Source: a virus
DNA length: 64,000 bases
Virus record (IMG/VR): IMGVR_UViG_3300026680_000001
Location: 7,089 to 71,088 of that record
Direction: 5' to 3' (one strand)
The position numbers were made by a program, and so were the translations under genes. How positions within the stretch are numbered: the stretch's first letter is position 1; each line of letters begins with the position of its first letter. Under the pieces are notes generated by a model. That model had not been told where the DNA came from and ran no database searches. It saw nothing but the letters and a program-made list of their open reading frames with translations. Below are positions 2,744 to 30,234 of this stretch, one piece after another.

Positions 2744-2983
2744 ATGGGCTGCCAGGAATGTCCCGGGCCAGGAACCTGGCGTGTCGATCGCCGGGGAGAC
2801 GCGGTGGTCTCGTGGTCCTGTTCGGCGCACCTGGCGCGTGTCTGTGCGGATTTACAGCGGGACTGGGAAGTAACACAGCTTGTGGTCACCCACGCGCGTC
2901 CAAGCTTGCGGAGTGGGCAGGGATCGGGGCCAGGCTTGACGAGATCGCTGAGGGGTTCTAGCCGTGTCCCGCACGCTGGCTGA
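2744..2983 (+). CDS. small Cys-rich hypothetical protein (CxxC...C...C); alternative frame 2758..2961 possible
   Basis: 79-aa ORF between G-T and tape measure; two alternative overlapping small ORFs, neither with clear RBS. Confidence 0.25.
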   Translation: MGCQECPGPGTWRVDRRGDAVVSWSCSAHLARVCADLQRDWEVTQLVVTHARPSLRSGQGSGPGLTRSLRGSSRVPHAG

Positions 2984-5900
2984 CGCCTTCGTCGCGATCC
3001 GACCTCGCGTCCACGAGTCCGCCGTCCAGGACGCCAAGGCCGCGGGGGAGCTGACTGGCCGTGCGTTCGGAGACGCCGCGTCCAAGAACGCGGCGTCAGC
3101 CGGGGAACGAACCGGGAGAGAGTTCGGCGCCGCTGCCGTTACCGGTGCCAAGAAGGCCGCCGACCGGGACGCCAAGGGTATGGGCGTGACGATCGGGGAG
3201 AAGATGGCCCTGGGAGTCGGCGCGGGGCTCTCCGTTGGCCTCCCACTGGTCGGGTCGGCGGCAGCCGTGGGATTGGTGGCTTCCATGGCCGCGGTCGGGG
3301 TCGCCATCGCGGCGCAGAACGAGCAGGTCAAGGCCGGGTTTTCGGTACTCGCGCAGCAGGTCACGACCGGGATGACCACCGCCGCCGCACCGCTGGTCCC
3401 GTTCCTGCTCGACGTGGCCGGTCAGGCGAGTACCGCGTTCGCCACGTTCCTTCCGGCCGTGACCGGTGCGTTCACCGCGCTCGGACCGGCGTTACAGGCG
3501 GGGCTCGCACCGTTCATGGCCGGGCTGACGCAGGCGTTCGTGAGCCTCGCGGAGGCCACCGCCAGATCAGCACCAATGATCACTGACATCATGACCCGGC
3601 TAGGCCAGCTACTGCCCACGGTGGTGGGCCTGGTCGTGGCACTCATCGAGCTTGGTGGTAACGCCATCGACCCGCTACTGGCCGTGATCAACGCACTGGT
3701 CGGTGGTCTCACCACGGTGATTGGGTGGATGGACCGGTACCAAGTCGTCACCATCGCCGTGGCTGCGGCACTGGCAGCGCTTGTGACGGTATCCAAGGTG
3801 CACGCCGCCGTGCTCACCGTCCAGGCCGCCGGGGGGCTCGCCAAGTACCTGGCGGGGCTGAATCTGGTGAAGGCGGCCACCCTGATCTGGACCGGTGTGC
3901 AGTGGGCGTTGAACTTCGCGTTGACCGCCAACCCGATCGGGCTCATCATCGTCGGGATCGCCGCGCTGGTCGCGGGCGTGATCCTGGCTTGGCGGCACAG
4001 CCAGACGTTCCGAACCGTGGTCGTGGGTGCCTGGGACGCGATCAAGGTCGCTGCCCAGTTCATGTGGTCGGTCATCAAAGTCGTGTTCGGGCTCTGGCTG
4101 GACTGCTACAAGCTCATCGGTGGGGCCGCGCTGTGGCTGTGGCGGAACGCTATCCTGCCGGCGTTCGAGGGCGTGGTCACCGCCGTCACGGCCGTGGGGA
4201 GTGCGTTCGTCTGGCTATGGCAGAACATCATCGCACCCGCCGTGTCAGCCATCGCGTCGCAGGTGACCTGGTTGTGGCGCAACATCATCGAGCCGGCCTG
4301 GACCGGGATCTCGTTCATCATCCAGGTCGTCTGGACCGTGATCCAGATCGTGTTCGGACTCTGGATGATTTACTACAAGCTCATCGGCGAGACGGCGCTG
4401 TGGCTGTGGCGGCACGGGGTACAGCCAGCGTTCGAGGGCGTTGCCGCCGTCGTGCTCTGGGCCTGGGACGCCGTCATTCGACCCACGTTCGACGCGTTCG
4501 CCGCCGTCGTCGTCTGGGTCGTGAACCAGGTCATCCGACCGGTCATGGACGCGCTGGTGTGGTTCTGGCGGAACGCCGTGGTCCCTGCCGCGTTGTTCTT
4601 GCGGGACATGGTCCGGGCCGCGATCGAGGCCATGGGACAGGCCATCCAGTTCGTCTCGGAACGGGTCATCCGACCGACCATGGACGCGCTGGTGTGGTTC
4701 TGGCGGAACGCCGTGGTCCCTGCCGCGTTGTTCTTGCGGGACATGGTCCGGGCCGCCATCGAGGCCATGGGTCAGGCCATTCAGTTCACCTGGGACCACA
4801 CTATTCGACCAGTCATGGACGCGATCGCGTTTGTGATCCGGGATGTGGTACCCACGGCGTTCCGGGTCGGAGTCGACGCCATCGCCCGAGCCTGGGACTT
4901 GCTTCGGGAAGCGGCCAAGGTACCGGTCAGGTTCGTGGTCGACGTGGTCATGAACCCCCTGATCCGGGGATACAACAAGATCGCCTCGTCGTTCGGGGTG
5001 AACACCGTCGCTGAGATCGGTCTCCCGTTCGTTACCGGTGGTATCTATCCCGGGTATTCCCCTGGCCGAGACATCGGACTGGCCGCTGTTTCCGGCTATG
5101 AGGCGATCATGCGTCCGGAGTGGACACGGGCCGTGGGGCCGGCGTATGTCCACGGGGCCAACGCCGCCGCGAGAACCGGTGGAGTCCCCGGGGTCCGTGC
5201 CTGGCTGGCTGGGGGGTTCGCTGACGGTGGCATCGTCGGTGACCTGCTCGGGTGGGTCACCGATCCCGTGGGGCGGGCCAGGGACGCGCTGGGTGGGCCT
5301 TTGAACCGGCTCAGGGAGCTTTCCAACACCCCGTTCAGTCAGATGATCGCCGCCATGCCACGGCGGATCTACGAGGCCGCCGTGGCGAAGGTGGAGTCGA
5401 TCGTCAAGGGGTTCGGGTCCAGTCTTGGATTTGGTGGTGGTGGTGTTGAGCGGTGGCGGGGTGTCGCGCTCTCGGCGCTGAGTTTGGCAGGTGCGCCAGC
5501 GTCGTGGATCGGATCATTGTTGCGCCGGATGAACCAGGAGTCCGGTGGAAATCCCATGGCGATCAACTTGTGGGACTCGAACGCGATGCGTGGCACCCCT
5601 TCGAAGGGCCTCATGCAGGTGATCCAACCCACGTTCAATGCCTACGCCGGCCCGTTACGGGATCGAGGGATCTGGGACCCCTTGGCGAACATCTTCGCCG
5701 CGATCCGGTACACGATCGCTCGTTACGGCTCCGGCCCCGCCGGGTGGGACCGGCCCGGTGGTTACGCTCGTGGCGGCATCGTGGGTGACGTGCGGTCATT
5801 GTCCATGGATGGTGGGTTCGGGGTTCTGCGGCCGGGCCCGAACATGGTGTTCAACGGGACCGGGCGGGATGAACCGATCACCTCCGGCCCCGTCGAGGTC

Positions 5901-6023
5901 CGGGTCTACATCGGCGACCGGGAGTTGACCGACATCACCCGTGTCGAGGTCGAACGGATCAACCGGCAGGTGGCCCGTCAACTGGCCGGGAGCCGGACCA
6001 CTGGGAACTACGACATACTATGA
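2964..6023 (+). CDS. tail tape measure protein with C-terminal lytic transglycosylase (SLT-like) domain
   Basis: 1019 aa; GTG start with GAGGGG RBS; N-terminal TM/helical repeats; periodic W-rich repeats (WLWRNAILPAFEGV etc.); C-terminal NQESGGNP...GLMQV...Y motif typical of SLT/lysozyme-like domain. Confidence 0.85.
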   Translation: MSRTLADAFVAIRPRVHESAVQDAKAAGELTGRAFGDAASKNAASAGERTGREFGAAAVTGAKKAADRDAKGMGVTIGEKMALGVGAGLSVGLPLVGSAAAVGLVASMAAVGVAIAAQNEQVKAGFSVLAQQVTTGMTTAAAPLVPFLLDVAGQASTAFATFLPAVTGAFTALGPALQAGLAPFMAGLTQAFVSLAEATARSAPMITDIMTRLGQLLPTVVGLVVALIELGGNAIDPLLAVINALVGGLTTVIGWMDRYQVVTIAVAAALAALVTVSKVHAAVLTVQAAGGLAKYLAGLNLVKAATLIWTGVQWALNFALTANPIGLIIVGIAALVAGVILAWRHSQTFRTVVVGAWDAIKVAAQFMWSVIKVVFGLWLDCYKLIGGAALWLWRNAILPAFEGVVTAVTAVGSAFVWLWQNIIAPAVSAIASQVTWLWRNIIEPAWTGISFIIQVVWTVIQIVFGLWMIYYKLIGETALWLWRHGVQPAFEGVAAVVLWAWDAVIRPTFDAFAAVVVWVVNQVIRPVMDALVWFWRNAVVPAALFLRDMVRAAIEAMGQAIQFVSERVIRPTMDALVWFWRNAVVPAALFLRDMVRAAIEAMGQAIQFTWDHTIRPVMDAIAFVIRDVVPTAFRVGVDAIARAWDLLREAAKVPVRFVVDVVMNPLIRGYNKIASSFGVNTVAEIGLPFVTGGIYPGYSPGRDIGLAAVSGYEAIMRPEWTRAVGPAYVHGANAAARTGGVPGVRAWLAGGFADGGIVGDLLGWVTDPVGRARDALGGPLNRLRELSNTPFSQMIAAMPRRIYEAAVAKVESIVKGFGSSLGFGGGGVERWRGVALSALSLAGAPASWIGSLLRRMNQESGGNPMAINLWDSNAMRGTPSKGLMQVIQPTFNAYAGPLRDRGIWDPLANIFAAIRYTIARYGSGPAGWDRPGGYARGGIVGDVRSLSMDGGFGVLRPGPNMVFNGTGRDEPITSGPVEVRVYIGDRELTDITRVEVERINRQVARQLAGSRTTGNYDIL
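4530..4799. repeat. near-perfect 2 x 135-bp tandem duplication inside tape measure gene (45-aa unit IRPxMDALVWFWRNAVVPAALFLRDMVRAAIEAMGQAIQF), with a partial third copy starting at 4800
   Basis: Copies at 4530-4664 and 4665-4799 differ at only a few positions; in-frame. Confidence 0.85.
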
Positions 6024-12445: not shown

Positions 12446-13117
12446 GTGGTGCAGGTGGGATCGACCGGGCAGGGGTTACCGTATCCGACCAACTCGGACC
12501 GTCCAGACTACACCGGGAACTTGTACCAGGCGTTCTCCGCCGCCGAGCGACTGGCCGTGATGCGGTTCCCCAACACCACCACTCGGGCTCGACTGCTCCC
12601 CGAGCCTGCCGAAGGCATGCTCTGCTACCTGGCCGAGGAACGCCGGCTGGAGTCGTTCTGGAGTGGTAGGTGGGTCCCGGCTCCGGTAACCCATGTCGTA
12701 TCTGGTATCTCGCTGGTACAAACTCAGAGTCAGGATTTGCCGTCGGGGACTGATACCCGACTGGAGTGGGACACCGTAGTTAGCGGTTCCTTCACCCCGT
12801 CGATGTGGTCATCCGGGAACCCGTCCGTCGTTACCGTGCCGTACAGGGGGGTCTGGGGAATTTCCTCGTATTTCCGGATCGGCAGAGTCCTGACCGGCCG
12901 CAGGGTCGCCCGAATCAAAATCAACGGCACCGTTCAGGTGGCACGGGTGCGGGACTGGGACCCACGCGGGTACGAACATATGACCATTGGCTTCTCATAT
13001 CCGCTCAACCTGGGTGACCAGGTCGAAATCGAGGCCCGGCAGGCGTCCGGCTCCCCGGCCAAGATTGGCGAGTTCGAACCATCGCGGCTCACGGTCACCC
13101 TGCGGTATCCGGTATAG
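12446..13117 (+). CDS. putative receptor-binding/minor tail protein, paralog 1 of 3
   Basis: 223 aa; shares GLPYP N-terminus, W...W...W spacing and RLT(V/I)xLRYxV C-terminus with next two genes. Confidence 0.5.
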   Translation: MVQVGSTGQGLPYPTNSDRPDYTGNLYQAFSAAERLAVMRFPNTTTRARLLPEPAEGMLCYLAEERRLESFWSGRWVPAPVTHVVSGISLVQTQSQDLPSGTDTRLEWDTVVSGSFTPSMWSSGNPSVVTVPYRGVWGISSYFRIGRVLTGRRVARIKINGTVQVARVRDWDPRGYEHMTIGFSYPLNLGDQVEIEARQASGSPAKIGEFEPSRLTVTLRYPV

Positions 13118-13119
13118 GA

Positions 13120-13815
13120 GTGATACCCCCCATGCCCGAGACCCCCATACTGGGCATCCCAGTCCCGGACCCCGACGACTCAGCCGCCGGCCCTGTGGAC
13201 TTACGGAGGGCACTGGAGGTATTGGAACTGTACCTGGTCGGGGACTGGCCGAACCTCACAGCCCAACAACGCCTGCAACCCGCACCACCTGATGGGGCCA
13301 TAGCATGGTTTGGCAACACCAGTCGGCATGAGCTGCGCCGTGGTGGCGCGTGGGAACACCTCAGCGGCGCTTCGGTGGTCGACGCGCACCTGGTTCGTTC
13401 TCCCGGCCAATTCATCCCTGGATGGCGAACCACGCCCATATCCTGGTCTAGTACCAGTTTCGGCACCCGCGCGGTCCAAGACATGTGGACGGTCACAGCA
13501 CCCACGAAGATCACCATTCCCAGGTCTGGGCTCTACGGGGTTCGGGTCGCCTGCCCGCTAATCCGGTTCTCCGGTTCCGGGTCAGGCCGGGTCCGCCTCG
13601 CGGTTAGAGTCAACGGGGAGTCCAAGTGGCGGGTCGCGGACAGCCGGCAGACTTCTACCGCGGCGGGGGACAACTACGTGTCGGTCACCTACGAGGACAA
13701 CTTGGCTTCGGGTGACTATCTGGTCATCGAGGCATACCACGAGGTCGACACTGGATTGGGTACTGGTAACGGGCCGTTCGCCCGGCTCGCCGTGGTCCTG
13801 CGAGCTACCACATGA
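13120..13815 (+). CDS. putative receptor-binding/minor tail protein, paralog 2 of 3
   Basis: 231 aa; alignable to 12446 and 13837 ORFs. Confidence 0.5.
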   Translation: MIPPMPETPILGIPVPDPDDSAAGPVDLRRALEVLELYLVGDWPNLTAQQRLQPAPPDGAIAWFGNTSRHELRRGGAWEHLSGASVVDAHLVRSPGQFIPGWRTTPISWSSTSFGTRAVQDMWTVTAPTKITIPRSGLYGVRVACPLIRFSGSGSGRVRLAVRVNGESKWRVADSRQTSTAAGDNYVSVTYEDNLASGDYLVIEAYHEVDTGLGTGNGPFARLAVVLRATT

Positions 13816-13836: not shown

Positions 13837-14520
13837 GTGGGTGAGACCCCGCTGCTCCGGCTCCCGTATCCAGATGGACCCGAGGGAATCGATCCGGATA
13901 TCGCGTTGCGACGGGCCATGGAGGCCGTCGAGCGCCGATCAGTGATGGTCTTCTCGGACGAGACGGCGAGAGCCGCTGGACTCGTCCATCCCGTGGACGG
14001 GATGGTGACGGGGCTGCGGAACCGTCGGCGGCATGAGGTGTTCCTGAACGGTGCCTGGTCCACGCTGCTGCCCAGCACCGCCGTGGTGCTGTCCCGGGCC
14101 GGGGTCGGGCAGAGTATCCCGCACAATGTCTGGACCCCGGTCCAGTGGGACACCGAGGACCCCACGTTCACGACGGATGCAGTCATATGGTCGGCCGGGG
14201 CACCCAGTGTGGTCGCGATCCCCTGGACAGGGGACTATGGGGTTACGGCGACCCTCGGGCTGGCCGGGAACGTGACCGGCCGCCGGTCCATCGCCGTCGC
14301 CGTGACCCGTGCTGGGGTGACGACCCGTACCCATGTCGATGCCCAGAACCCCCCACCGGCCGGAGCTGACATCGCCCACCTGAACATCGACACGGATATT
14401 GGCCTGTTCGCGGGTGACACCGTAGCCATTCATGTCTTGCAGACCTCGGGGGTTCCGTTGTTGACTGATACATCCGAGACCATTCCGAGACTCACGATCG
14501 ACCTACGGTACGTGGTCTAG
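13837..14520 (+). CDS. putative receptor-binding/minor tail protein, paralog 3 of 3
   Basis: 227 aa; LRLPYPDG N-term, RLTIDLRYVV C-term; alignable to the two upstream genes. Confidence 0.5.
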   Translation: MGETPLLRLPYPDGPEGIDPDIALRRAMEAVERRSVMVFSDETARAAGLVHPVDGMVTGLRNRRRHEVFLNGAWSTLLPSTAVVLSRAGVGQSIPHNVWTPVQWDTEDPTFTTDAVIWSAGAPSVVAIPWTGDYGVTATLGLAGNVTGRRSIAVAVTRAGVTTRTHVDAQNPPPAGADIAHLNIDTDIGLFAGDTVAIHVLQTSGVPLLTDTSETIPRLTIDLRYVV

Positions 14521-14809
14521 GTTAACGGAATAGCTCCCACACCAGGATTACCAGCCGTAACACACCGGTAGTTGGTGGGGTCCGTTATTATCAGTCGTCA
14601 GCATCATCGCACGTCGCGATAGTAGTGGCGTTCCGCATGTCTGTCGCAGCTTGCTCGTATTTCGCCTTCGCTGCCAACCGTTGAAGCTCCATCCGCACCA
14701 TGTCATCGGTCAGCCGCTTCGATGTAACAAGCTGTCAGGGGTGCGGGGCACTTTCGTTTGCCATTTCGGTTACCTCCTGTGTGTTTCTGTATGACAGATA
14801 GTCATTCAT

Positions 14810-14848
14810 GACCACTCGACTACCGACCCGGACGGTAGTCGAGTGGTC
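14810..14848. terminator. strong 16-bp perfect hairpin (GACCACTCGACTACCG / CGGTAGTCGAGTGGTC) at convergence point of rightward tail operon and leftward block; candidate bidirectional terminator
   Basis: Perfect inverted repeat with 7-nt loop in a 390-bp lower-GC non-coding gap. Confidence 0.45.
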
Positions 14849-14912
14849 AGTGTTGACCTCCTAGTACAGGCAATCGCATACTGACACGAGTTCGCGCTTG
14901 TCCCGTCGCCCC

Positions 14913-15170
14913 TCATATCGGTCCATCTTCGTAGAAATGGTTATGGTCGGCTGTCCATTCAAGGGTCCACTTGTCTTGGTAGGCATAGCAGTCATATGGT
15001 GGAATGTATTGGCCCAGGCCATGCCACGTACATACCTTGCCTGGATCGTGCTTCACGAGGTCGGGCCGACAATCGCTTAGCCAGTGCCGGGCACCATCGG
15101 TCTCGTAACCGTTCAGGACGTAGGTTCCACAAAGGCAGCATTGGTGACAGTCATAATCACCTAATCTCAT
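14913..15170 (-). CDS. Cys-rich hypothetical protein
   Basis: ATG at 15170 with GGGGGAG RBS 9 nt upstream; multiple CxxC/CC motifs. Confidence 0.4.
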   Translation of the reverse strand: MRLGDYDCHQCCLCGTYVLNGYETDGARHWLSDCRPDLVKHDPGKVCTWHGLGQYIPPYDCYAYQDKWTLEWTADHNHFYEDGPI

Positions 15171-15172
15171 GG

Positions 15173-15394
15173 TTACTTGCTCCCCCGTCGTCCCCGGATG
15201 ATGATTGCAACCAGGCTTGGCGAGCATCCAACAGCAGCAGCGAGAACGTCATATTTCCATCGGTCCGGGTCCTCGTCACGGAGCTGGCGGATCAACTGGT
15301 CCCGTTGGTCCCGGTGAGCCCTAGCCAACCCATCGGCATCATCTGCCATCCGGTGATGTTTTCGGGCCTCACGGGCTCGTCGGTCACTCATCAC
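15173..15394 (-). CDS. small HTH DNA-binding protein
   Basis: 73 aa; VLAAAVGCSPSLVAIIIRG helix-turn-helix-like segment; start overlaps upstream gene. Confidence 0.4.
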   Translation of the reverse strand: MMSDRRAREARKHHRMADDADGLARAHRDQRDQLIRQLRDEDPDRWKYDVLAAAVGCSPSLVAIIIRGRRGSK

Positions 15395-15858
15395 GCACCA
15401 CCGTCGCTGGTGGTTCGGTAGAGGTGGCCGTGGCGCAAGAGCTGGTCAATGGTGTCGGCCAAGGTTGGGGGCATGAGATCATTGAAACTGTCGGGACAGA
15501 GGATGGAACTGACCAAGATGGAGCACTTCGCGCGCGTGGCACCCGCCAATAGCCTGCGAAAGCCCTCAGCTTCTTCAACTCCAACCTGGACCCCAATACC
15601 GTCGACAACGATGAGATCGGAACTAGCTGTGGTGCTGATAACGTTACCGCTGCGGGTAAACACACCCAGATTTTTCAGGTCGTTCAGGGCAAACCAGAAC
15701 ACGTGCATGCCGGCCTCGGCCGCTTGCTGGCTTAGGCTCCGTAGTATGAACGTCTTGCCGGTGCCACGCGGTCCACAGACCATCAGGTTCTCTCGACGGC
15801 GAATCCATTCTAGTTTGCGTAATGTGTTCACATCAGTGAGGCACCGATTAGTCATCAT
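15391..15858 (-). CDS. IstB/DnaC-like AAA+ ATPase (helicase-loader-like)
   Basis: Walker A GPRGTGKTF and Walker B LIVVDGIG; short 155-aa form; no adjacent istA-like transposase. Confidence 0.6.
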   Translation of the reverse strand: MMTNRCLTDVNTLRKLEWIRRRENLMVCGPRGTGKTFILRSLSQQAAEAGMHVFWFALNDLKNLGVFTRSGNVISTTASSDLIVVDGIGVQVGVEEAEGFRRLLAGATRAKCSILVSSILCPDSFNDLMPPTLADTIDQLLRHGHLYRTTSDGGA

Positions 15859-16092
15859 GATTTGTCTCCAACTCCACGCACTTCCTCGTTACGTCGGCAG
15901 TTTCCCCTGCCATCGTTCGTGACCTCTCCCGTTATGCCAACGTTTCGCCTGACCTGGTGACCCGTACCGATGCTGAACCGGCGTCACCAGCCGGCCTATC
16001 GCTGGATGCCAATGGCCCATGCGATAAGCAACTCGCCAGGTCCCGCATCGGCGCGAGGATCATCCGGTCATCATGGGATGTTAGTTGGTTAG

Positions 16093-17739
16093 TCACAGGT
16101 CACCCCGGGAAAAGTCCGCGATCAGTGACGGGACCGTGGCATCCATACCGGCGATGTCGAGCATCCCGGCGTCGGACGGGTCCGCGATGCTGAACTCAGT
16201 GGCCGTCATCCCGACGACTGCGAGCCGGGCGTCGATCCCGGAAGCGTCCCGGTACTGGGCCAGTGCCTCGTGTGGGTGTATGGCTCCTGCCCAGGTCTCG
16301 TTGTCCGTGTAGATCACAAAGGTGTCAATTTCCAGATTGCGTTTCATGGCATAGATCATCGGCAGGGCACAGTCCGTGCCACCGAACGGCAGGCTGGACA
16401 CCGCACCCACGGCGTCGTCCAGCCGCTGTCGTGGGCTGATCGAGAGTGGGGTCAGTGTTGGACTCCCGCCACCCCACAGCCCACCGCAGTAACCACTGTC
16501 CGCACGGGTAAACCCCAAGATCACGTGCCGGGACTCGGTTGCCGCCGTGACCAGTGCCAGCGCCGCGCTGGCCTCCCGGCACGTGATCGGCATACCGCTG
16601 ATCTGTTGTCCCATGGACCCGGACACGTCCAGCGCCAGCAACATCCGCTCCCCGGATGGTTCCACGGCCCCGAACGATGCATAGAACGCCTCGTCCAGCG
16701 CGTCGACGATGATCCGCGACGGAGTCCAGCTGGTCGCGCCTCGTGCGCTATGCCCAGAGGCGTAGGTCCGCTGCGCCAACAGTACGGAGATCGGATGCAC
16801 GCGCGCCTGACGCAGCCGCTCCGGACTGGTCAATTGCACGGCTACCGCCGTGGCACGGTGCCCAAACGGGTCGAGCAGACCCAGCCTGGTCAGCCGGGGC
16901 AGTTGCCGTATCAGCGCGGTCTGCGGCATGTCGGCGTCTAACAACGCCTCCCACACCACCGGCTCGGCCAGTGCCGAGTCTGGAAGCATCTCCCAGGACA
17001 AGCCAACCCCATCAGTGATCATTCGGGCCACTTCGCGAGGTGAAGCGGTCTGGGCGCGGGTGAACGCCTCAACCAGGTAGAGACCATTCGATGACGTGAA
17101 GTTGCCACACGGCTCACAGATCCAGCTGAACAGCTCGTCTCGTGCCTCGGAGTCGGGTACGGGATGGGCGAGCCGGAGCAGGTCCCGGTGCGTCCAACCC
17201 TCCCGGTTCCGGTACTTGACCACCTGGTATTCCAGGTCATGGACAGACTTGTTCAGGTACCAGTTCGATACCGCTCGACGCATTCCCCGACCCCAGCCAC
17301 GGAACTGCTCGACGTACCTGACGAACGTGAACAGGTGCGTTCCGGTGCGGGCCACGGCAGGCAACGCCACCAGTGCGGCCCTGCGACCGTGGTTGTCGCC
17401 GAGTGAGGCCACAGCCGCGAGCGCGAACAGTGCCGGTCCCTGGCGTGGTGCCCGGCCAGCGATGGATATCTCCACGATCGCACGAACCAGGTCGAGAGGC
17501 CGGTCGCGGGCCATGTCGAGTACGATGCCCGCGTTGTCCTTGGCCAGTTCACTGGCCCCGACGTAGTACGTGCCGCCATCCACGCCGAGGGTCAGGAAGC
17601 GTTGTAGCCGTGCGTCGTCGGTGATTCCGAAGGTGAACCCGCCGGCACTGTTCTTGACCTGGTCAGGGTGGGCCGGTTCGTTCTGTGGGGTCGTGAGGTT
17701 CCGAGTCCGGATCGCTACCAGTGGGTCCGTCTTGGTCAT
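16093..17739 (-). CDS. rsr: Ro60/Rsr ortholog (TROVE domain + C-terminal vWA domain)
   Basis: 549 aa from ATG 17739 (AAGGAG RBS); N-terminal TROVE-like region; C-terminal vWA with MIDAS motif DVSGSM; size and architecture match bacterial Rsr. Confidence 0.75.
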   Translation of the reverse strand: MTKTDPLVAIRTRNLTTPQNEPAHPDQVKNSAGGFTFGITDDARLQRFLTLGVDGGTYYVGASELAKDNAGIVLDMARDRPLDLVRAIVEISIAGRAPRQGPALFALAAVASLGDNHGRRAALVALPAVARTGTHLFTFVRYVEQFRGWGRGMRRAVSNWYLNKSVHDLEYQVVKYRNREGWTHRDLLRLAHPVPDSEARDELFSWICEPCGNFTSSNGLYLVEAFTRAQTASPREVARMITDGVGLSWEMLPDSALAEPVVWEALLDADMPQTALIRQLPRLTRLGLLDPFGHRATAVAVQLTSPERLRQARVHPISVLLAQRTYASGHSARGATSWTPSRIIVDALDEAFYASFGAVEPSGERMLLALDVSGSMGQQISGMPITCREASAALALVTAATESRHVILGFTRADSGYCGGLWGGGSPTLTPLSISPRQRLDDAVGAVSSLPFGGTDCALPMIYAMKRNLEIDTFVIYTDNETWAGAIHPHEALAQYRDASGIDARLAVVGMTATEFSIADPSDAGMLDIAGMDATVPSLIADFSRGDL

Positions 17740-17956
17740 GCAAATCTCCTTCCGGCCCGTTACCGGGCAATGGAAAGACCCCCACGGTCCGGGCGAGAAA
17801 TTCAAGACTGGCCATGGGGGTGGGTAGCCAGTCCTCCGGACCGTGGGGGTCCGTCTGTGGCCTACGGGCAAGTTGGTGGCATCCGGGGATCACCATTCGC
17901 AGAGGTAACCGAACACCGTCCAGCCCGTAGGTCGTGCGGGGCAACAACGATGGAGT

Positions 17957-18093
17957 GAGGCGGACGGGCAAGGTGTGCGTGCCGGGTTTCAGCGCTCTGC
18001 CAGCTGAGCTACACGGTCAATGCCGTGACGGGACTCGAACCCGCGACCTCTCCATTACAAGTGGTAACCGACTCGCTTCGGCCCGTCCGCCTC
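17957..18093 (-). ncRNA. Y-RNA-like (YrlA-like) RNA: 13-bp terminal stem enclosing a circularly permuted tRNA-like domain
   Basis: Perfect inverted repeat GAGGCGGACGGGC (17957-17969) / GCCCGTCCGCCTC (18081-18093); on minus strand T-arm GCGGG-TTCGAGT-CCCGT, then acceptor-like hairpin CACGG-cattga-CCGTG, then D-arm GCTC-AGCTGGCA-GAGC; 218 bp upstream of rsr, same strand. Confidence 0.5.
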
Positions 18094-18238
18094 GCTCTCG
18101 TGTTGTCCAACGATGCCGACTGTAATGGTCTACAGTTGGGCCTGTCAAGCTGCCATCGGCTTACCAAGTCCACCACCCCCGTCGTACGATGGGTGGCGAC
18201 CGTACGAGACCAGCAACGACGGGGAGGGACGATCACTC

Positions 18239-18988
18239 GTGAGCCGTCGTCACATGGTGGTCCTGTTAGCGGTCGCGTCAGGACTGGCCGGCGAGATCCT
18301 CGCAGCCACATCCATGACCCGGATCGCGGGGCCGGTGGACGTGGCCGGGGGCCGACTCGGGTTCCCCGGCGGCGCCGATGGCCTGGACCTTCGATGGACC
18401 CTGTTCGCGGTGGTGTCGATCGCGGGATGGGCCGGGGCCGTGCTCTGGACCAGCAACCGAGCGCGGGACCGTAAGTGGGGCGCCCCGATCAATGTTGGTG
18501 CCGGTGTCTTGGCCGGGATCGCCATCGGCCTGGACCATGTGGTCCACGCGGACCCGGCCCTGGCCTGGCGACTGGTCGCGTTCTTCGTCGGGCTGGCCGT
18601 CCCGCTGTTTTCCTCCCTCATGATCCACACCATTGCCCATGTAGCGTCCGCGGACACCAAGTTGCCCGATCGGCCGAAGAGGCGTGAACGACACCAGCCG
18701 GCCACCCCCGTGCCGCCCCACAACGGTATTCCCATGCCATCCGTGAATGGCACCCCGGTCCCACTACCGGCACCCACACGAGCCATTCGGCCGGTGGCCG
18801 ACGGAACCCAAGACCTGCCAGCGGTCGAGGCCCGGCGAGCGTTCGCCACGCGATGGCTCACGGAACACCTGACCTCCGAGACCCAGCCGAATGATCTCGT
18901 CACCGCAGCGGCGCGGGAAGGCCTGACAATAACCCGTCAGGCCGCCCACAAATGCCTGAAAAGGGCCAGGGACCAGGTTCGCGCATGA
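18239..18988 (+). CDS. integral membrane protein with C-terminal HTH-like segment
   Basis: GTG 18239 with GGGAGGGA RBS; 4-5 hydrophobic helices; C-terminal TAAAREGLTITRQAAHKCLKRARDQV; stop overlaps next start (ATGA). Confidence 0.4.
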   Translation: MSRRHMVVLLAVASGLAGEILAATSMTRIAGPVDVAGGRLGFPGGADGLDLRWTLFAVVSIAGWAGAVLWTSNRARDRKWGAPINVGAGVLAGIAIGLDHVVHADPALAWRLVAFFVGLAVPLFSSLMIHTIAHVASADTKLPDRPKRRERHQPATPVPPHNGIPMPSVNGTPVPLPAPTRAIRPVADGTQDLPAVEARRAFATRWLTEHLTSETQPNDLVTAAAREGLTITRQAAHKCLKRARDQVRA

Positions 18989-20925
18989 CCAATGTGGACG
19001 ACCGACTTCCCGTCATTGTCGAGGATGATGGCGGGACACCTCCTGACCCCATCCCAGATGATGATCGACCATCTCCGGATTCGCCATCACCGAGTGGCAG
19101 GGCCGGTGTCTGGTTGGAGCGGGCCGCCATGTGGCGGTTTCCCACGCCTGCGCGGATGTGGTCGGTATGCCGGTGGTGGATGCTCACCGCGCTGGCCGCC
19201 TCCCCATACATGGCATTACGGCTACCAGTCGCGGCGTGGCGCCATGTACGAGCCATCCTGGTCGGGCTCGGAATGGTTCTCGCCGCATGGGCACGGTGGC
19301 GAATCCGAGAAGACTGGCTCAAGGATGTACAGGCGGCTGACGGTCTCAAGCGCGCCAAGCACCGAGAATACTTCGAGAAGCGTCGTCGAGCCCGGTCACT
19401 GTGGTCGGCGTTCCTGCTCATCGTCGTGTGCGTGGCCATCTTGGCAGCGGTACGGCTCTGGCCCCACTATCTGGCCCTGGTCGTTCTCCTGACGATGATC
19501 GGCCTCGACGCGCTCGGGCATCGCGGGGCTCCGGACCCCGACCTACCTCAGCCACCGTCCTCACCACTTCGCGAGGGTGCTCCGGCACGGGTGATTGTGT
19601 CCCAGGTGCACGACATTCTCACCGGCCGGGGTCACCGGGCGACCGTCGTGGCCCCGGTCGTCGGCCCACATGGTGTCGCGATGGAGGTCCACGACCCAGA
19701 GCGAGCGATTGATGAAGGCGATCTGGACGCCCTGGAACGAGGATTGCAGACCTATCCGGGGGCAGTGTTGCAATCACCGTCCCGGACCAACGCCGCGGTC
19801 ACGGCGCTACGCGTGCACTGGAGTGACCCACTGGCCGAGCACCGCCCACCGCCGGCCAGGGCACCGCTGTCGCGCACCGTGGCCGACCCGGCGGACCTGG
19901 GATATGGCGTTCGCGGGGAAGTGCTGCGACTGGGATTGCTGCGGACCAGTGTCCTGGTCGTGGGTGGTCCGGGGTCAGGCAAGTCCACCACACTGTCCGG
20001 GATGCTGGATTATCTCACCGCGTGCGGTGACGTGGTCGTCGACGCGATCGACCTGTCCGGTGGGGCCACATTCGGGCCCTGGCGGGCTTGCCTGCGTAGC
20101 GTGTCCACCGACCGGGACGAGGCTGAGGAAGTCCTGCGGGACGCGGTGGCGCTGGCCAAACGCCGGACCCGGCAGCTGGAACACCATGACAGTTGGTCTC
20201 CCGGGGATGGTCCGTGCCGGGTCCTGTTCATCGACGAGTTCCCGCTGCTGGCCATGGACGAGACATTGCTCGCGCTGTACGGCGAGCACCTACAGATCGG
20301 GCGCAAGGCCGGGTCCACCTCCGTCGTCGGGGTCACGGACCTGACCAAGGAGACGATGGGTGCCACTCGGATGCGCAAGTACCCGAGTAGCTACATTCTG
20401 CATGCCTGCTCCCGTGAGGACGTGGTGATCGCGCTCGGGGGCGGGATGGTGGCCGCCGGCTGGGCTCCGCACCGACTCGTCCCCGAGCAGGGCGATGAGG
20501 TCATGGACGCGGGTAAGGCATACGTCTGGTCCGGCCGGTACAGGGCCCCCGAGCCGTGGCGGTTCTGGAAGGTCTCCAAGGACGAGGCACGGCGCCGTGC
20601 CGGAGAGCGGGCACGTGCCGGCACACCCCAGCTGGACGAGGACGACGTGATCGACGCTGTGGTGGTGCCGGCGGACCTGGAGATCTTCCGAACCGCGTTC
20701 GCCGACGCGGGCTGGCCGGAGTTCATGGCCACCGACGACATCATCGAACATCGGCGATCGACCAACGGCGACACTCCGACGCGAGAGAACCTGTCTGAGA
20801 TCGCGGCTCGGTACGGATTCGCCCCCGCCGCCTCTCGTCGCCGGCCAGTCGGGGGCGGGAATCCCCGGCGCGGGTACCTCGCTGCGGATGTGCGGCGGGC
20901 ACTGTCTGAGCTTGAGGCAGAATGA
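18985..20925 (+). CDS. FtsK/SpoIIIE-family DNA translocase (TraB-like)
   Basis: N-terminal TM segments, Walker A VVGGPGSGKST, Walker B VLFIDEF; about 646 aa. Confidence 0.7.
   Translation: MTNVDDRLPVIVEDDGGTPPDPIPDDDRPSPDSPSPSGRAGVWLERAAMWRFPTPARMWSVCRWWMLTALAASPYMALRLPVAAWRHVRAILVGLGMVLAAWARWRIREDWLKDVQAADGLKRAKHREYFEKRRRARSLWSAFLLIVVCVAILAAVRLWPHYLALVVLLTMIGLDALGHRGAPDPDLPQPPSSPLREGAPARVIVSQVHDILTGRGHRATVVAPVVGPHGVAMEVHDPERAIDEGDLDALERGLQTYPGAVLQSPSRTNAAVTALRVHWSDPLAEHRPPPARAPLSRTVADPADLGYGVRGEVLRLGLLRTSVLVVGGPGSGKSTTLSGMLDYLTACGDVVVDAIDLSGGATFGPWRACLRSVSTDRDEAEEVLRDAVALAKRRTRQLEHHDSWSPGDGPCRVLFIDEFPLLAMDETLLALYGEHLQIGRKAGSTSVVGVTDLTKETMGATRMRKYPSSYILHACSREDVVIALGGGMVAAGWAPHRLVPEQGDEVMDAGKAYVWSGRYRAPEPWRFWKVSKDEARRRAGERARAGTPQLDEDDVIDAVVVPADLEIFRTAFADAGWPEFMATDDIIEHRRSTNGDTPTRENLSEIAARYGFAPAASRRRPVGGGNPRRGYLAADVRRALSELEAE
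20872..20916. repeat. copy 1 of a 44-bp imperfect direct repeat (3' end of FtsK-like gene); copy 2 at 21695-21737
   Basis: GGGTACCTCGCTGCGGATGTGCGGCGGGCACTGTCTGAGCTTGA vs GGGTACCTCGCTACGGATGTGCGGGACGCACTGTCTAGGCTCGA; both encode GYLA(A/T)DVR(R/D)ALS(E/R)L. Confidence 0.7.
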
Positions 20926-27194: not shown

Positions 27195-27725
27195 GTGGCG
27201 AGGTCAATGACACATGACTGGCGACAGCAAATCACCGAACTGGCGCGGCAACTAGCCGAGTTCGCGCGAACGAAAGATCCCGCGGCACGCGTCGCCCAGG
27301 CACCGGGCCTTACCCTTGACTGCCAGGCCGTGCTGGCCCAGGCCAGGGCCGCGAGCCTGGCTGAGCTGGTCGACCGGGGGATGACCCTAGCCCAGGCCGC
27401 CGAGACAGCAGGCCTCACCCCCGAACGTGCCGACCAACTGATCCGCCGACTGTTCATCGCTTACGGTGGGGCTGGTCGCCGGATCTCTCCCGAGGTCCGG
27501 GGTGACCTGCTCGACCTGTTCGAGCGGGCTGGCGTGCTCGACCCCGATGGCCGGGACCGGGTGGCCACGGCATTGCTCGGCCGTCCGGTCGAGAGCGCCG
27601 TTACCACGATCTCATTGGATGAAGGCCGACTTCTTCGTGACCGGCTACGGGCCATGTCCGCAAGCAACGACTACGCAATAGTGGTCGCGGAACTTATCAA
27701 ACAAGGGAAGGATCAGACATCATGA
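27195..27725 (+). CDS. putative HTH DNA-binding protein
   Basis: GMTLAQAAETAGLTPERADQLIRR helix-turn-helix-like segment; stop overlaps next start. Confidence 0.4.
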   Translation: MARSMTHDWRQQITELARQLAEFARTKDPAARVAQAPGLTLDCQAVLAQARAASLAELVDRGMTLAQAAETAGLTPERADQLIRRLFIAYGGAGRRISPEVRGDLLDLFERAGVLDPDGRDRVATALLGRPVESAVTTISLDEGRLLRDRLRAMSASNDYAIVVAELIKQGKDQTS

Positions 27726-28183
27726 CACACGCAACCACTACGGCACCGGTAGAGTCCCAGTACGAGGAGAGATTCGTCAGGGTCATCGTCGCCTCGTTCG
27801 GATTCCTTCATGGCCCGCCGCCTGAGGGCCAACACCTGGTCGTCGACGTACGCACAATACTGTGTGACCCACACGTCGACCCCAGGATGCGGGAACTGAC
27901 CGGGCTCAATCTCATCGTTCGGCGACATGTACTGAACACACCCGGTGCGTCAACGCTGGTCGCCAACCTAGTCCCCGTGGTCCTCGGGATCGCAGCCATT
28001 ATCAGCACGCCCAGCCCACAATGGGAGGTTACGAAAATCGCCATCGGGTGCGCGGGTGGTCGCCACCGGTCTGTCGTCCTAGCGAACGAACTCACACAGC
28101 GGCTGATCGACGGTGGCATCGGTGCCGAGGTCAGTCATCGAGATATCCAGCAGCCCGTCATCGACCGTGTGACCGAAGAGTAA
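27722..28183 (+). CDS. RapZ C-terminal-domain-like protein
   Basis: SFGFLHGPPP, VVDVRTILCDPH, RELTGLN segments resemble RapZ C-terminal RNA-binding domain motifs (SFGFKYG / DVRFLPNPH / LTG). Confidence 0.45.
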   Translation: MTHATTTAPVESQYEERFVRVIVASFGFLHGPPPEGQHLVVDVRTILCDPHVDPRMRELTGLNLIVRRHVLNTPGASTLVANLVPVVLGIAAIISTPSPQWEVTKIAIGCAGGRHRSVVLANELTQRLIDGGIGAEVSHRDIQQPVIDRVTEE

Positions 28184-29111: not shown

Positions 29112-29494
29112 CGAATCAGCACGACAGCAAGGAGCTAGTCAACCTTGACCAGCTCGACGGCGTCCGTGATCTTTGCGTCGGGGTGGTCGCCAGTGCGCCG
29201 TTCTGGCATTACGGACTCAGTACACAGCACGTGGACGTGAGCCGGGAGACCATCCAGCTCCGGACCGCTTCCTATGGTAGGTCCTACCCAGCACAGGAAG
29301 TTCGGGAGCGGGTCTGTGAAATGATCCGCCTGACGGTCGTCGAGCTGGACGTTGTGATCAAAGAGCTGACCCGTCACCGTGACCGACTGATCGACCAAGT
29401 CCTGAAACAGGGTCAGCGCGAGGACTGGGTCACCCACGATCCCACACTCGGACCTGACGATCGCCCGACCTGTCGTCGGAAGATTGACTCATGA
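29108..29494 (+). CDS. hypothetical protein
   Basis: 128-aa ORF with overlapping stop/start coupling. Confidence 0.35.
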   Translation: MTNQHDSKELVNLDQLDGVRDLCVGVVASAPFWHYGLSTQHVDVSRETIQLRTASYGRSYPAQEVRERVCEMIRLTVVELDVVIKELTRHRDRLIDQVLKQGQREDWVTHDPTLGPDDRPTCRRKIDS

Positions 29495-30234
29495 ACATAT
29501 GCTACCGGGTGATGATCGTACTGGTCACCACCTTCGCTTGGGTGATCCCCGGCTGCAACGCGGGCCAGTACACCTCCGAACCGGTCCCGACCCCCGGCGA
29601 CCAGCAGGTCACCACCGTTCCGCCCTACGCGGTACCAGCCGGGACCTTGCCGCGTGACGACGCATTATCTGCGCTCAACGGCCTGGTGATCGCCCCGGAG
29701 GGAACTCAGGCTGGCTATGACCGGGATTGCGGGTCTGGCCATGCCTGTTCGTTCGGCCCGGCATGGTCCGACGATGTGCGGGTGGCCGGCGGGCATAACG
29801 GGTGCCGGACCCGCGATGACATCCTGCGCCGGGACCTGACCGACGTGCGATCACCCGATGGGTGTGTGGTCACGGCGGGGGAGCTGCTGGACCCCTACAC
29901 TGGGCAGACCATCGCCTACCAGCGCGGCGAGTCGGACGTGGACATCGACCACGTGGTAGCCCTGGCACAGGCGTGGCGCTCGGGTGCGGCCGGATGGGAC
30001 CCGGACCAGCGCCGGGACCTGGCCAACGACCCCCGTAACCTGCTCGCCGTCGAGGCCGGCGTCAACCGGAGCAAGGGCGACGACGACGCCGGCCAATGGT
30101 TGCCGCCCAACGCGGAGTACCGCTGTACTTATGCGCTGATCGTCACCACGGTCAAGGCCCTGTACAGGTTGACCGTGGACGCCCAAGAAATGTCGATGCT
30201 AAGGAGTGAGGTGGAGACGTGTCCAAGAGGTTAA
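29491..30234 (+). CDS. secreted lipoprotein with DUF1524/HNH-like nuclease domain
   Basis: N-terminal signal plus lipobox-like VIPGC; DIDHVVALAQAW...NLLAVEAGVNRSKGD motif typical of DUF1524 (GmrSD C-terminal-like) nucleases. Confidence 0.55.
   Translation: MNICYRVMIVLVTTFAWVIPGCNAGQYTSEPVPTPGDQQVTTVPPYAVPAGTLPRDDALSALNGLVIAPEGTQAGYDRDCGSGHACSFGPAWSDDVRVAGGHNGCRTRDDILRRDLTDVRSPDGCVVTAGELLDPYTGQTIAYQRGESDVDIDHVVALAQAWRSGAAGWDPDQRRDLANDPRNLLAVEAGVNRSKGDDDAGQWLPPNAEYRCTYALIVTTVKALYRLTVDAQEMSMLRSEVETCPRG

Follow-up and report, generated by a model that had tools for sequence, protein, structure and literature searches.

A Ro60–Y RNA cassette in an uncultured, probably lytic phage of an actinobacterium

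Introduction

In D. radiodurans, the Ro60 protein Rsr, a Y RNA and polynucleotide phosphorylase (PNPase) form the RYPER complex, in which the decay of structured RNA is stimulated. Y RNAs lie upstream of rsr in this organism. The tRNA-like module of D. radiodurans Yrn1 is arranged otherwise than in YrlA RNAs, which are the form described in actinobacteria: in M. smegmatis, YrlA and YrlB are cut from one precursor upstream of rsr, G. polyisoprenivorans is a species in which a YrlA-like RNA has been shown, and YrlA was reported in mycobacteriophages (ET08) in 2014 (PMC4201824).

Of the deposited phage genomes, 355 have a Ro-like protein among their annotations, and carriers of the family PHROG 850 include cluster C mycobacteriophages (ScottMcG, Spud and Cali) and phages of Streptomyces, Gordonia and Microbacterium. 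To our knowledge, Thermus phage phiLo is the only phage whose Ro60 has been characterised biochemically, and we know of no published infection phenotype. The phiLo protein has the ring and vWA fold; two Y-like RNAs (Yrl1 and Yrl2) are encoded immediately upstream of its gene, and Ro60 binds both of them together with host PNPase, attenuating the latter (Hu et al. 2025, PMC12135203; 9KOP, 9L5Y).

Here we describe a Ro60–Y RNA cassette in a 64,000-nucleotide stretch of viral DNA (the window; positions 7,089 to 71,088 of IMG/VR record IMGVR_UViG_3300026680_000001). A sequence-only reading of this DNA had picked out a Ro60/Rsr orthologue in a phage accessory block. The call is correct but ordinary, because hundreds of phages carry the module and it is already in the literature; with phage Y RNAs published in 2014 (PMC4201824), the implied novelty was overstated.

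Results

The phage

The source is an uncultured phage of an actinobacterium with a novel genome of approximately 71 kb. Its phage nature, assumed by the sequence-only reading, is borne out by the ORF annotation of the window (tape measure, tail proteins, an FtsK-like protein, helicase and primase/polymerase) and by portal and protease genes just beyond its edge on the same contig, where called genes also include terminase-sized and capsid-sized ones. None of 50,697 deposited phages is related to it at the nucleotide level; when 50 kb of the window was compared with deposited phages by megablast, the only matches were the 100-nt YrlA module and a fragment of ThyX. ARAGORN found no tRNA genes in the window. 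With a primase/PolA, ThyX and dCTP deaminase of its own, the phage has genes typical of lytic phages, and no integrase or repressor is present among the window ORFs scanned or the called genes outside the window. We consider the phage to be probably lytic. The RapZ-C-like protein that had been suggested at 27722–28183 (plus strand) was recovered as well, with a match to PapZ_C at E = 3.5e-27.

The Ro60/Rsr protein

The rsr open reading frame spans 16093–17871 on the minus strand; the ATG at 17739, preceded by a ribosome-binding site (GGAAGGAG, 17746–17753), yields a full-length product of 548 aa (16093–17739), and the identical protein is present in public gene calls. Local GC content is 61–68%. 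Both domains proposed from the sequence were recovered with Pfam: TROVE (PF05731, E = 1.8e-44) in 2 stretches, of which the best covers aa 28–207, and vWA_Ro60 (PF25045, E = 2.3e-60) at aa 365–543 (16111–16647). Pfam, PDB alignments and the structural model discussed below together place the TROVE/HEAT-repeat ring portion at approximately aa 28–364 (16648–17658). The product matches PHROG 850 with E = 7.9e-101 and aligns continuously, end to end, with D. radiodurans Rsr (2nvo, E = 2.8e-109) and Xenopus Ro60 (1yvp, E = 4.2e-104). The NCBIfam Rsr profile (NF041674) gives 507 bits over profile positions 11–531 of 531 and does not reach its equivalog cutoff of 900; since this cutoff is far above the score obtained here over the full length, missing it is no argument against membership of the Ro60 family. 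The domain matches of this ORF, like those of the RapZ-C ORF and of the IstB-like ORF described below, are far beyond chance.

In the C-terminal vWA domain of Ro60, the MIDAS is defined as DxSxS...T...D (PMC11277228). The DVSGSM string noted in the sequence-only reading lies at aa 371–376 (nt 16612–16629), and the complete motif consists of D371-x-S373-x-S375, T455 and D479, which align with DVSGS/DVSAS, GGTDCA/GSTDCA and YTDNET/FTDCET of 2nvo and 1yvp. These residues are invariant in 156/156 homologues (77 viral and 79 bacterial) whose ORFs were picked by BLASTP; choosing the longest ORF gives spurious ORFs at approximately 15–20% of these high-GC loci and thereby false MIDAS variants. K175, R179 and H192 align with K170, R174 and H187 of the Xenopus protein and are kept in 156, 155 and 143 of the 156 homologues, respectively. 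K170 and R174 presumably take part in the binding of misfolded RNA. The H187S mutant of Xenopus/mouse Ro60 lacks Y RNA binding (PMC11277228).

An AlphaFold model of the 548-aa protein (pLDDT 84.5, pTM 0.81) predicts the Ro60 ring fold, with aa 41–358 all-helical, and superposes on Ro60/Rsr structures with TM scores of 0.72–0.80 over 514–549 alignment columns. The structure comparison also matches the Thermus phage Ro60 (9kop/9l5y), at TM 0.53–0.62. As judged from alignments and model, the protein has the complete Ro60 architecture of ring and vWA/MIDAS, with the known RNA-binding positions retained. Its nearest named homologues are the chromosomal Rsr proteins of Nocardia and Actinophytocola (63–66% identity), within a range of 56–66% for mycobacterial, Nocardia, Gordonia and Actinophytocola Rsr. 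It is thus closer to these than to any protein from an isolated phage (at most 61%), the actinobacteriophage members of PHROG 850 being 38–61% identical over their full length. The phiLo protein is very distant, at 17–18% identity; D. radiodurans Rsr, which is homologous over the full length, and metazoan Ro60 are both far closer to the protein described here.

Two Y RNAs and a long hairpin upstream of rsr

The sequence-only reading had suspected a Y RNA belonging to the phage; we find two, both upstream of rsr and on the same (minus) strand. The first is a YrlA-type RNA (17956–18093), identified by Rfam, folding and covariation, which ends 217 nt before the start codon of rsr. Its terminal stem of 13 bp (18081–18093 paired with 17957–17969) covaries and carries GCCGAAG (18076–18082), an instance of the GNCGAAN0-1G motif. 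An internal stem is also present, and the tRNA-like module consists of a T-arm (GGUUCGAGUCC in the T-loop), a 5-bp acceptor-like stem and a D-arm (GUAGCUCAGCUGGCAGAGC), the stem between them covarying. In actinobacterial YrlA RNAs, a GNCGAA-type motif in the terminal stem is likewise combined with a T-arm/acceptor-like stem/D-arm module. A sigma-70-like promoter candidate, TTGACA-18 nt-TACAGT (18119–18148, minus strand), precedes the 5' stem of YrlA by approximately 25 nt; it is a consensus match only (10/12 hexamer positions).

At gathering thresholds, Rfam reports nothing in the window, and the Y RNAs emerge only in E-value mode and with a purpose-built Y RNA model (R1). The YrlA model RF02553 gives 43.1 bits (E = 1.9e-7), short of the gathering threshold of 69 bits. 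The other actinobacterial and phage loci scanned score 36–46.5 bits, and G. polyisoprenivorans, with its known YrlA-like RNA, also reaches no more than 45.2 bits, so that the Rfam model under-scores the whole group. The minimum free energy of the RNA is -65 kcal/mol (z = -3.3), and compensatory changes occur at 15/34 pairs in an 8-sequence alignment. R1 gives 134.6 bits for a sequence that was itself in the R1 seed. Across 113 distinct sequences of the viral set, pairing is 91.8%, with a covariation score of 0.528 versus 0.05–0.08 for slid controls; the underlying alignment was fitted to the model, and such counts are thereby biased towards the structure.

The second RNA is a short Y RNA without tRNA-like module (17856–17935), supported by Rfam, R1 and alignment. 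It has in common with YrlA the terminal stem, a CUGGA/CCGGA-type bulge and CGGUUACC. It scores 34.6 bits (E = 1.6e-4) against the nematode stem-bulge RNA RF01656, a Y RNA homologue, and 33.9 bits (E = 6.6e-5) with R1; the z-score of its folding energy is -2.9. It aligns to 22 short elements at the equivalent position of other rsr loci, and the short class keeps GCGGGCCGGA...CGGTTAYC...CCGG...CACGCCCGC as well as a covarying terminal stem.

With R1, Y RNA arrays upstream of rsr and on the same strand were found at 49/80 IMG/VR loci and 75/80 bacterial loci, and they are also present in Gordonia phage Cashline and prophiGD43A-5. The order YrlA, short Y RNA, rsr is kept in the closest phage relatives (L165–L167). 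Order and strand are likewise as in M. smegmatis, where YrlA is followed by a second Y RNA and then rsr. According to these alignments, both RNAs are members of conserved, covarying Y RNA classes that accompany rsr throughout actinobacteria and their phages. The locus differs from those of actinobacterial Rsr in being phage-encoded, in an extra long hairpin before rsr and in an IstB-like gene after it.

The long hairpin was identified by folding (17776–17852, minus strand) and has a pyrimidine-rich apical loop (CCCACCCCC); the segment 17740–17860 folds with -67 kcal/mol (z = -5.8). R1 run with filters off gives 16.3 bits, compared to 12.7 bits for the reverse strand, and no relatives of the hairpin were found at the other rsr loci. 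A terminator scan flags its inner stem together with TCTTTCCATT. It could represent a third Y RNA that has degenerated, or a hairpin for attenuation or processing.

Genes downstream of rsr

The sequence-only reading had placed an IstB/DnaC-like ATPase next to the Ro60 gene. Such an ORF is indeed present between rsr and a small helix-turn-helix (HTH) gene (15391–15858, minus strand, 155 aa), but it is truncated: the Pfam IstB_IS21 match (E = 6e-15) covers only profile positions 80–226 of 238, and the NCBIfam match, at 62.9 bits versus a cutoff of 200, positions 77–224 of 232. Walker A reads GPRGTGKT, and Walker B (LIVVDG) has no acidic residue after the Asp. No transposase (IstA) match was obtained among the neighbouring ORFs scanned. 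Local GC is 55–60%, versus 61–68% for rsr. In a tblastn search, none of 164 other rsr loci had a homologue; the ORF is an incidental, truncated insertion specific to this phage, and the idea of a conserved Ro60 partner is ruled out.

The HTH gene (15173–15394, minus strand, 73 aa) behaves differently. Homologues with 44–61% identity are found by tblastn downstream of rsr, on the same strand, at 57 loci (19 viral and 38 bacterial), and 27/57 start between -13 and +11 nt from the rsr stop codon. By this measure, it is the usual gene immediately downstream of rsr and a frequent, tightly linked partner. Its Pfam matches (HTH_31 and MRP-L20) are weak, NCBIfam has no family for it, and a word-indexed protein search gave a single match; we found no description in the literature of this gene following rsr. 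The minus-strand cassette ends with an 85-aa ORF (14913–15170) that is called in public assemblies and has no Pfam or PHROG match and no homologue at other rsr loci. Where the plus-strand tail operon meets the cassette, a near-perfect 20-bp hairpin (inverted repeat I3, 14809–14849; 95% complementary, 1-nt loop) is, from its position, a candidate bidirectional terminator.

We tentatively suggest, while regarding it as rather doubtful, that the 73-aa HTH protein is a dedicated third component, so far undescribed, of Ro60–Y RNA modules in actinobacteria and their phages, and that the hairpin at 17776–17852 is a new, divergent type of Y RNA. The HTH protein might autoregulate the Y RNA-rsr operon or serve the RNP as an adaptor. 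A still weaker possibility is that the AAA+ fragment cooperates with the MIDAS-bearing vWA domain, as MoxR-type ATPases do with vWA proteins.

Discussion

The reading that we favour, with a probability of roughly 0.6, is that the cassette is a self-contained Ro60–Y RNA RNP module with which a probably lytic actinobacterial phage of approximately 71 kb redirects or dampens host RNA decay. The cassette would be transcribed as a single minus-strand unit starting at the candidate promoter near 18119–18148, in the order YrlA-type Y RNA, short Y RNA, hairpin, rsr mRNA, IstB-like fragment and small HTH protein. By homology, each Y RNA would be bound through its conserved terminal stem by the outer face of the Ro60 ring, and 3' ends of structured or misfolded RNAs would be threaded through the central hole. 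Host polynucleotide phosphorylase may be tethered by the opposite end of the Y RNA, which in YrlA is the tRNA-like module, as in the RYPER and phiLo complexes, a compatible enzyme in the host being presumed. The likely net effect during infection would be that host 3'-5' RNA decay is redirected or dampened to the benefit of the phage. That the phage manipulates host RNA surveillance, as the sequence-only reading proposed, is what we infer by analogy for the role of the module during infection. Two observations count against the proposal: the effects on PNPase in the described systems are opposite, namely stimulation in D. radiodurans and attenuation in phiLo (PMC12135203), and the YrlA score of 43.1 bits is below the Rfam gathering score of 69.

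An unlikely alternative is that the module is a moron, i.e. cargo for stress fitness or lysogenic conversion that would provide Rsr-type protection of the host, and not a means of lytic takeover. Its own promoter would then drive it while the phage is in a carrier or lysogenic state, and it would support rRNA quality control and decay following UV exposure, oxidative stress or starvation. The orientation of the cassette, opposed to the flanking operons and with its own promoter-like site, fits this picture, and so does the company that rsr keeps elsewhere: in Cashline it adjoins integrase and repressor genes, a serine recombinase lies approximately 5.4 kb from it in one of the closest phage relatives (L166), and it occurs in M. 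abscessus prophages. Moreover, chromosomal proteins are its nearest named homologues. However, the window ORFs scanned and the called genes outside include no integrase or repressor, and the primase/PolA, ThyX and dCTP deaminase genes are of a kind typical of lytic phages.

We give similarly little credence to counter-defence by RNA mimicry, with Ro60 mainly stabilising a decoy. Host tRNA-directed nucleases, or tRNA-modifying or -sensing enzymes, would meet a decoy or sponge in the tRNA-like module of YrlA; alternatively, the RNP would sequester the PNPase needed for type III CRISPR crRNA maturation, an idea put forward for CRISPR and PNPase in PMC12135203. The module is the most conserved part of YrlA (85–86% identity to M. 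abscessus prophages across 100 nt, with an annotation there as tRNA-Thr), and the phage itself lacks tRNA genes. Nevertheless, the argument is wholly inferential, no defence-related partner adjoins the cassette, and identical RNA types flank chromosomal rsr in 75/80 bacterial loci, so that the module is not phage-specific.

Finally, it is very improbable that the phage has recently captured a host rsr locus that is now decaying or neutral, with no role in infection: the odd composition downstream of rsr (51–60% GC) and the truncated IstB-like insertion, a sign of local rearrangement, would fit, but the rsr ORF is intact and full length with all MIDAS residues and all three RNA-binding positions checked retained, pairing is maintained in both Y RNAs, the closest relatives are also on phage contigs with the same layout, and 355 deposited phages keep rsr.

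The Ro60–Y RNA module belongs to a kind of system that is already known, and the general picture is unchanged; the locus is a confirmation and not a surprise. Its value is that of a compact example with clean parts, namely a candidate promoter, YrlA, a short Y RNA, rsr and a small HTH gene. The phage is probably lytic, and its Ro60 is much nearer than that of phiLo to the proteins of D. radiodurans and metazoans, which are well studied. The survey of loci also shows that the Rfam YrlA threshold (69 bits) misses all actinobacterial and phage Y RNAs scanned (36–46.5 bits).

As a side observation on annotation, the YrlA module is labelled as tRNA-Thr in a deposited M. abscessus prophage.

The rsr gene encodes an intact Ro60 protein

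The minus-strand rsr gene at 16093-17739 encodes a 548-residue Ro60/Rsr orthologue. Its ATG, at position 17739 inside the open reading frame 16093..17871, is preceded by a ribosome binding site (GGAAGGAG at 17746-17753), and public gene callers predict an identical protein. Pfam searches recovered both domains expected from the sequence-only reading, TROVE (E=1.8e-44) and the Ro60-specific vWA domain (E=2.3e-60, aa 365-543), while PHROGs assigns the ORF to phrog_850, "RNA-binding protein" (E=7.9e-101). With phmmer against PDB sequences, full-length alignments were obtained to D. radiodurans Rsr (2nvo, E=2.8e-109) as well as to Xenopus and human Ro60 (1yvp and 9nen, E approximately 1e-104). The proposed orthologue is confirmed at its exact interval. 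The whole of the NCBIfam Rsr equivalog profile is covered by its alignment, which scores 507 bits, under the strict 900-bit cutoff.

An AlphaFold2 model generated with 30 homologues as input (mean pLDDT 84.5, pTM 0.81) predicts an all-helical region (aa 41-358) followed by an alpha/beta domain. The top PDB matches in Foldseek are exclusively Ro60/Rsr structures (TM 0.72-0.80 over 514-549 alignment columns), in agreement with the anticipated ring fold; ranking next are Ro60 of the Thermus phage phiLo (TM 0.53-0.62, 17-18% identity) and, after it, vWA domains on their own. The DVSGSM motif that had been read as a MIDAS occupies aa 371-376, and the MIDAS residues D371, S373, S375, T455, and D479 are invariant in 77 viral and 79 bacterial homologues. 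Among the same 156 proteins, K175 (aligned with K170) is kept in all, R179 (R174) in 155, and H192, which aligns with Xenopus H187, in 143; the H187S mutant has been described as lacking Y RNA binding (PMC11277228).

Identity is at most 61% to proteins of isolated phages, 63-66% to the Rsr encoded on Nocardia and Actinophytocola chromosomes, and 65-69% to metagenomic proteins. The contigs of 2 of these metagenomic proteins were looked up, and both are phage-like with the same RNA layout. The identical protein is encoded by one metagenomic contig of 71,097 bp and one Logan contig of 20 kb.

Two Y RNAs precede rsr

Rfam at gathering thresholds and ARAGORN gave no match in the window. When Rfam was run in E-value mode on the 370 nt preceding rsr, 2 matches appeared on the rsr strand: YrlA (RF02553; 17962-18085, 43.1 bits, E=1.9e-7) and RF01656, nematode stem-bulge RNA, a family of Y RNA homologues (17861-17932, 34.6 bits, E=1.6e-4). 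YrlA scores under the threshold are usual in this clade, with 45.2 bits for Gordonia polyisoprenivorans, a species in which a YrlA-like RNA has been shown (Chen et al. 2014, PMC4201824), 46.2 bits for M. wolinskyi, and 42.2 bits for Gordonia phage Cashline. All actinobacterial and phage examples scanned, at 36-46.5 bits, fall short of the 69-bit gathering score.

In an 8-sequence alignment, YrlA folds into a terminal stem, internal stem, T-arm, acceptor-like stem, and D-arm, with compensatory changes in 15 of 34 pairs and all helices satisfied by the window sequence. The window YrlA (17956-18093, minus strand) has a 13-bp terminal stem, the GNCGAAN0-1G motif as GCCGAAG (18076-18082), GGUUCGAGUCC in its T-loop, and GUAGCUCAGCUGGCAGAGC in its D-arm. 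The short Y RNA (17856-17935, minus strand; 33.9 bits, E=6.6e-5) could be aligned to 22 short elements from other loci, where they fill the slot between YrlA and rsr. The terminal stem, a CCGGA-type bulge, and CGGTTAYC are shared features of this element, and the tRNA-like module is missing from it. The prediction that the phage carries its own Y RNA was borne out, by 2 covarying RNAs. A sigma-70-like promoter candidate (TTGACA-18-TACAGT; 18148 to 18119, minus strand) lies approximately 25 nt upstream of YrlA, and the Y RNAs and rsr form a single apparent transcription unit. This layout matches that of M. smegmatis, in which a single precursor encoded ahead of rsr yields both YrlA and YrlB (PMC4201824).

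We built a covariance model from the 8-sequence alignment and ran it on 160 related IMG/VR and GTDB loci. Y RNAs were found at 49 of 80 viral and 75 of 80 bacterial loci, often with 2 to 5 in tandem. All bacterial matches, and all but three viral ones, lie upstream of rsr on the rsr strand. The viral alignment was fitted to the model; within it, 91.8% of cells are paired, double-sided changes affect 37 of 38 pairs, and covariation scores 0.528, versus 0.05-0.08 with partners slid. Arrays of tandem paralogues, with five at most, precede rsr at many loci (e.g., L014, L019, L012, L086, and L122).

In the Mycobacterium prophage prophiGD43A-5, an annotated "tRNA-Thr (tgt)" (L004:3547-3625, i.e., MW584167.1 26001-26079) sits upstream of the Ro-like gene. 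It coincides with a YrlA match (124 bits with our model) that is 86% identical to the window YrlA, at a locus with four tandem Y RNA matches, and is probably a mis-annotated tRNA-like module of YrlA. That standard thresholds miss, and annotation sometimes mislabels, such Y RNAs is a modestly new point.

An additional hairpin upstream of rsr

A long and highly stable minus-strand hairpin (17776-17852), likewise modestly new, separates the short Y RNA from the ribosome binding site, in a region (17740-17860) that folds at -67 kcal/mol (z=-5.8). Its apical loop is pyrimidine-rich (CCCACCCCC) and its 5' strand, CACGGUCCGGAGG, resembles the Y RNA 5' motif. Some second Y RNAs described by Chen et al. 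2014 (PMC4201824) form long hairpins capped by small loops rich in pyrimidines, and this element may be a degenerate third Y RNA, although the Y RNA model gives it only 16.3 bits, and 12.7 bits on the reverse strand. Alternatively, since a terminator scan flags the inner stem plus TCTTTCC, the hairpin may serve attenuation or processing. No relatives were found in other rsr loci, the closest phage relatives having only approximately 24 nt at this position, and the hairpin is specific to this phage.

A conserved HTH gene and an inserted IstB-like ORF downstream

Three ORFs downstream of rsr were compared by tblastn with 164 other rsr loci. Homologues of the 73-aa HTH gene (15173-15394, minus strand) occur downstream of rsr at 57 loci (19 viral and 38 bacterial; 44-61% identity), always on the rsr strand. 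At 27 loci the start lies -13 to +11 nt from the rsr stop, and overlap with the stop codon is frequent. The gene is absent from the rsr loci of Nocardia, Gordonia, and M. wolinskyi. The HTH protein falls into no curated family of Pfam or NCBIfam and has no description in the literature searched; the rsr-linked gene is another modestly new feature. Examples among these loci, of approximately 70 aa and directly downstream of rsr, are L003:4583-4798 and L165:7592-7804.

In the window, the rsr-to-HTH gap is 699 nt and is occupied by an IstB-like ORF (15391-15858, minus strand), whose stop overlaps the HTH start. The adjacent IstB/DnaC-like ATPase of the sequence-only reading does match Pfam IstB_IS21 (E=6e-15), in the C-terminal AAA+ region of that profile only. 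In NCBIfam, too, it is truncated (profile positions 77-224 of 232; 62.9 bits versus a cutoff of 200). Its Walker B lacks the acidic residue after Asp, no IstA adjoins it, and neither this ORF nor the 85-aa ORF has a counterpart at the 164 other loci. GC content is 51-60% at 14300-16100 versus 61-70% on both flanks, which suggests mosaic acquisition; this stretch holds the IstB-like ORF, the HTH gene, the 85-aa ORF, and a 20-bp hairpin (14809-14849) at the point of convergence with the tail operon. Because it is truncated, defective in Walker B, without IstA, low in GC, and absent at other loci, the IstB-like ORF is rejected as a functional Ro60 partner: it is an incidental insertion that interrupts a conserved unit of Y RNAs, rsr, and HTH gene.

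Relation to known Ro60 modules and possible function

The locus is one more member of a well-populated, published class and not a discovery. According to PMC4201824, which cites Pedulla et al. 2003, mycobacteriophage Ro60 has been known since that study. PMC4201824 itself (Chen et al. 2014) describes likely Y RNAs close to Ro60 from over 250 species of bacteria and phages, with a YrlA of a mycobacteriophage among them. We found homologues in 355 deposited phage records (including 212 Mycobacterium, 115 Streptomyces, 11 Gordonia, and 10 Microbacterium), with nearly all of the 40 records listed annotated as "Ro-like RNA binding protein" or "RNA-binding protein".

The phage carries an intact Ro60 ring complete with a vWA/MIDAS domain, together with two Y RNAs that are conserved and covary; the sequence-only reading was right on what is there and reasonable on possible function. 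Judging from homologues, the ring would bind the Y RNA terminal stem, its cavity would accept 3' ends of structured RNAs, and the distal Y RNA module would tether host polynucleotide phosphorylase (PNPase). The phiLo Ro60, the structure of which has been solved, was shown to bind host PNPase along with two Y-like RNAs encoded upstream, and to attenuate PNPase activity (Hu et al. 2025, PMC12135203), whereas the effect on RNA decay in D. radiodurans is stimulation. In M. smegmatis, overexpressing the Ro-like protein LeBron gp53 has a toxic effect (PMC13148394). As rival readings, the module might instead be a moron that benefits host fitness, or might serve counter-defence through tRNA mimicry or PNPase sequestration. 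A third rival, neutral cargo, is disfavoured by complete conservation.

Phage genome context

The Ro60 cassette runs opposite to both flanking operons. On one side, a membrane-protein-like ORF (18113-18988, plus strand) precedes an FtsK/SpoIIIE-like ATPase (18952-20925, plus strand; PHROG 12531, E=1.1e-39), both adjoining the cassette and divergently transcribed. The window also encodes a tape measure protein (2964-6023) and tail proteins, a helicase, a primase/PolA fusion, ThyX, lysins, and a 247-aa GmrSD_C protein with a restriction-endonuclease C-terminal domain (29491-30234, plus strand; E=7.8e-13); portal, S78 protease, and terminase- and capsid-sized ORFs lie on the contig outside it. 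Since no integrase or repressor was seen among the scanned subset of window ORFs or among the genes called on the contig outside the window, the phage is probably lytic. At the nucleotide level, 50,697 deposited phages include no relatives except for a ThyX fragment and the 100-nt YrlA module, which is 85-86% identical to M. abscessus prophages.

The RapZ-C-like protein noted earlier was recovered as a stand-alone RapZ C-terminal domain (27722-28183, plus strand; PapZ_C E=3.5e-27, PHROG 18111), a second RNA-binding-type accessory gene in this phage. At the end of the tail module, three tandem plus-strand ORFs of approximately 225 aa (12446-13117, 13120-13815, and 13837-14520) are paralogues with a similar LPYP / P..D N-terminal motif, and are probably minor tail or receptor-binding variants.
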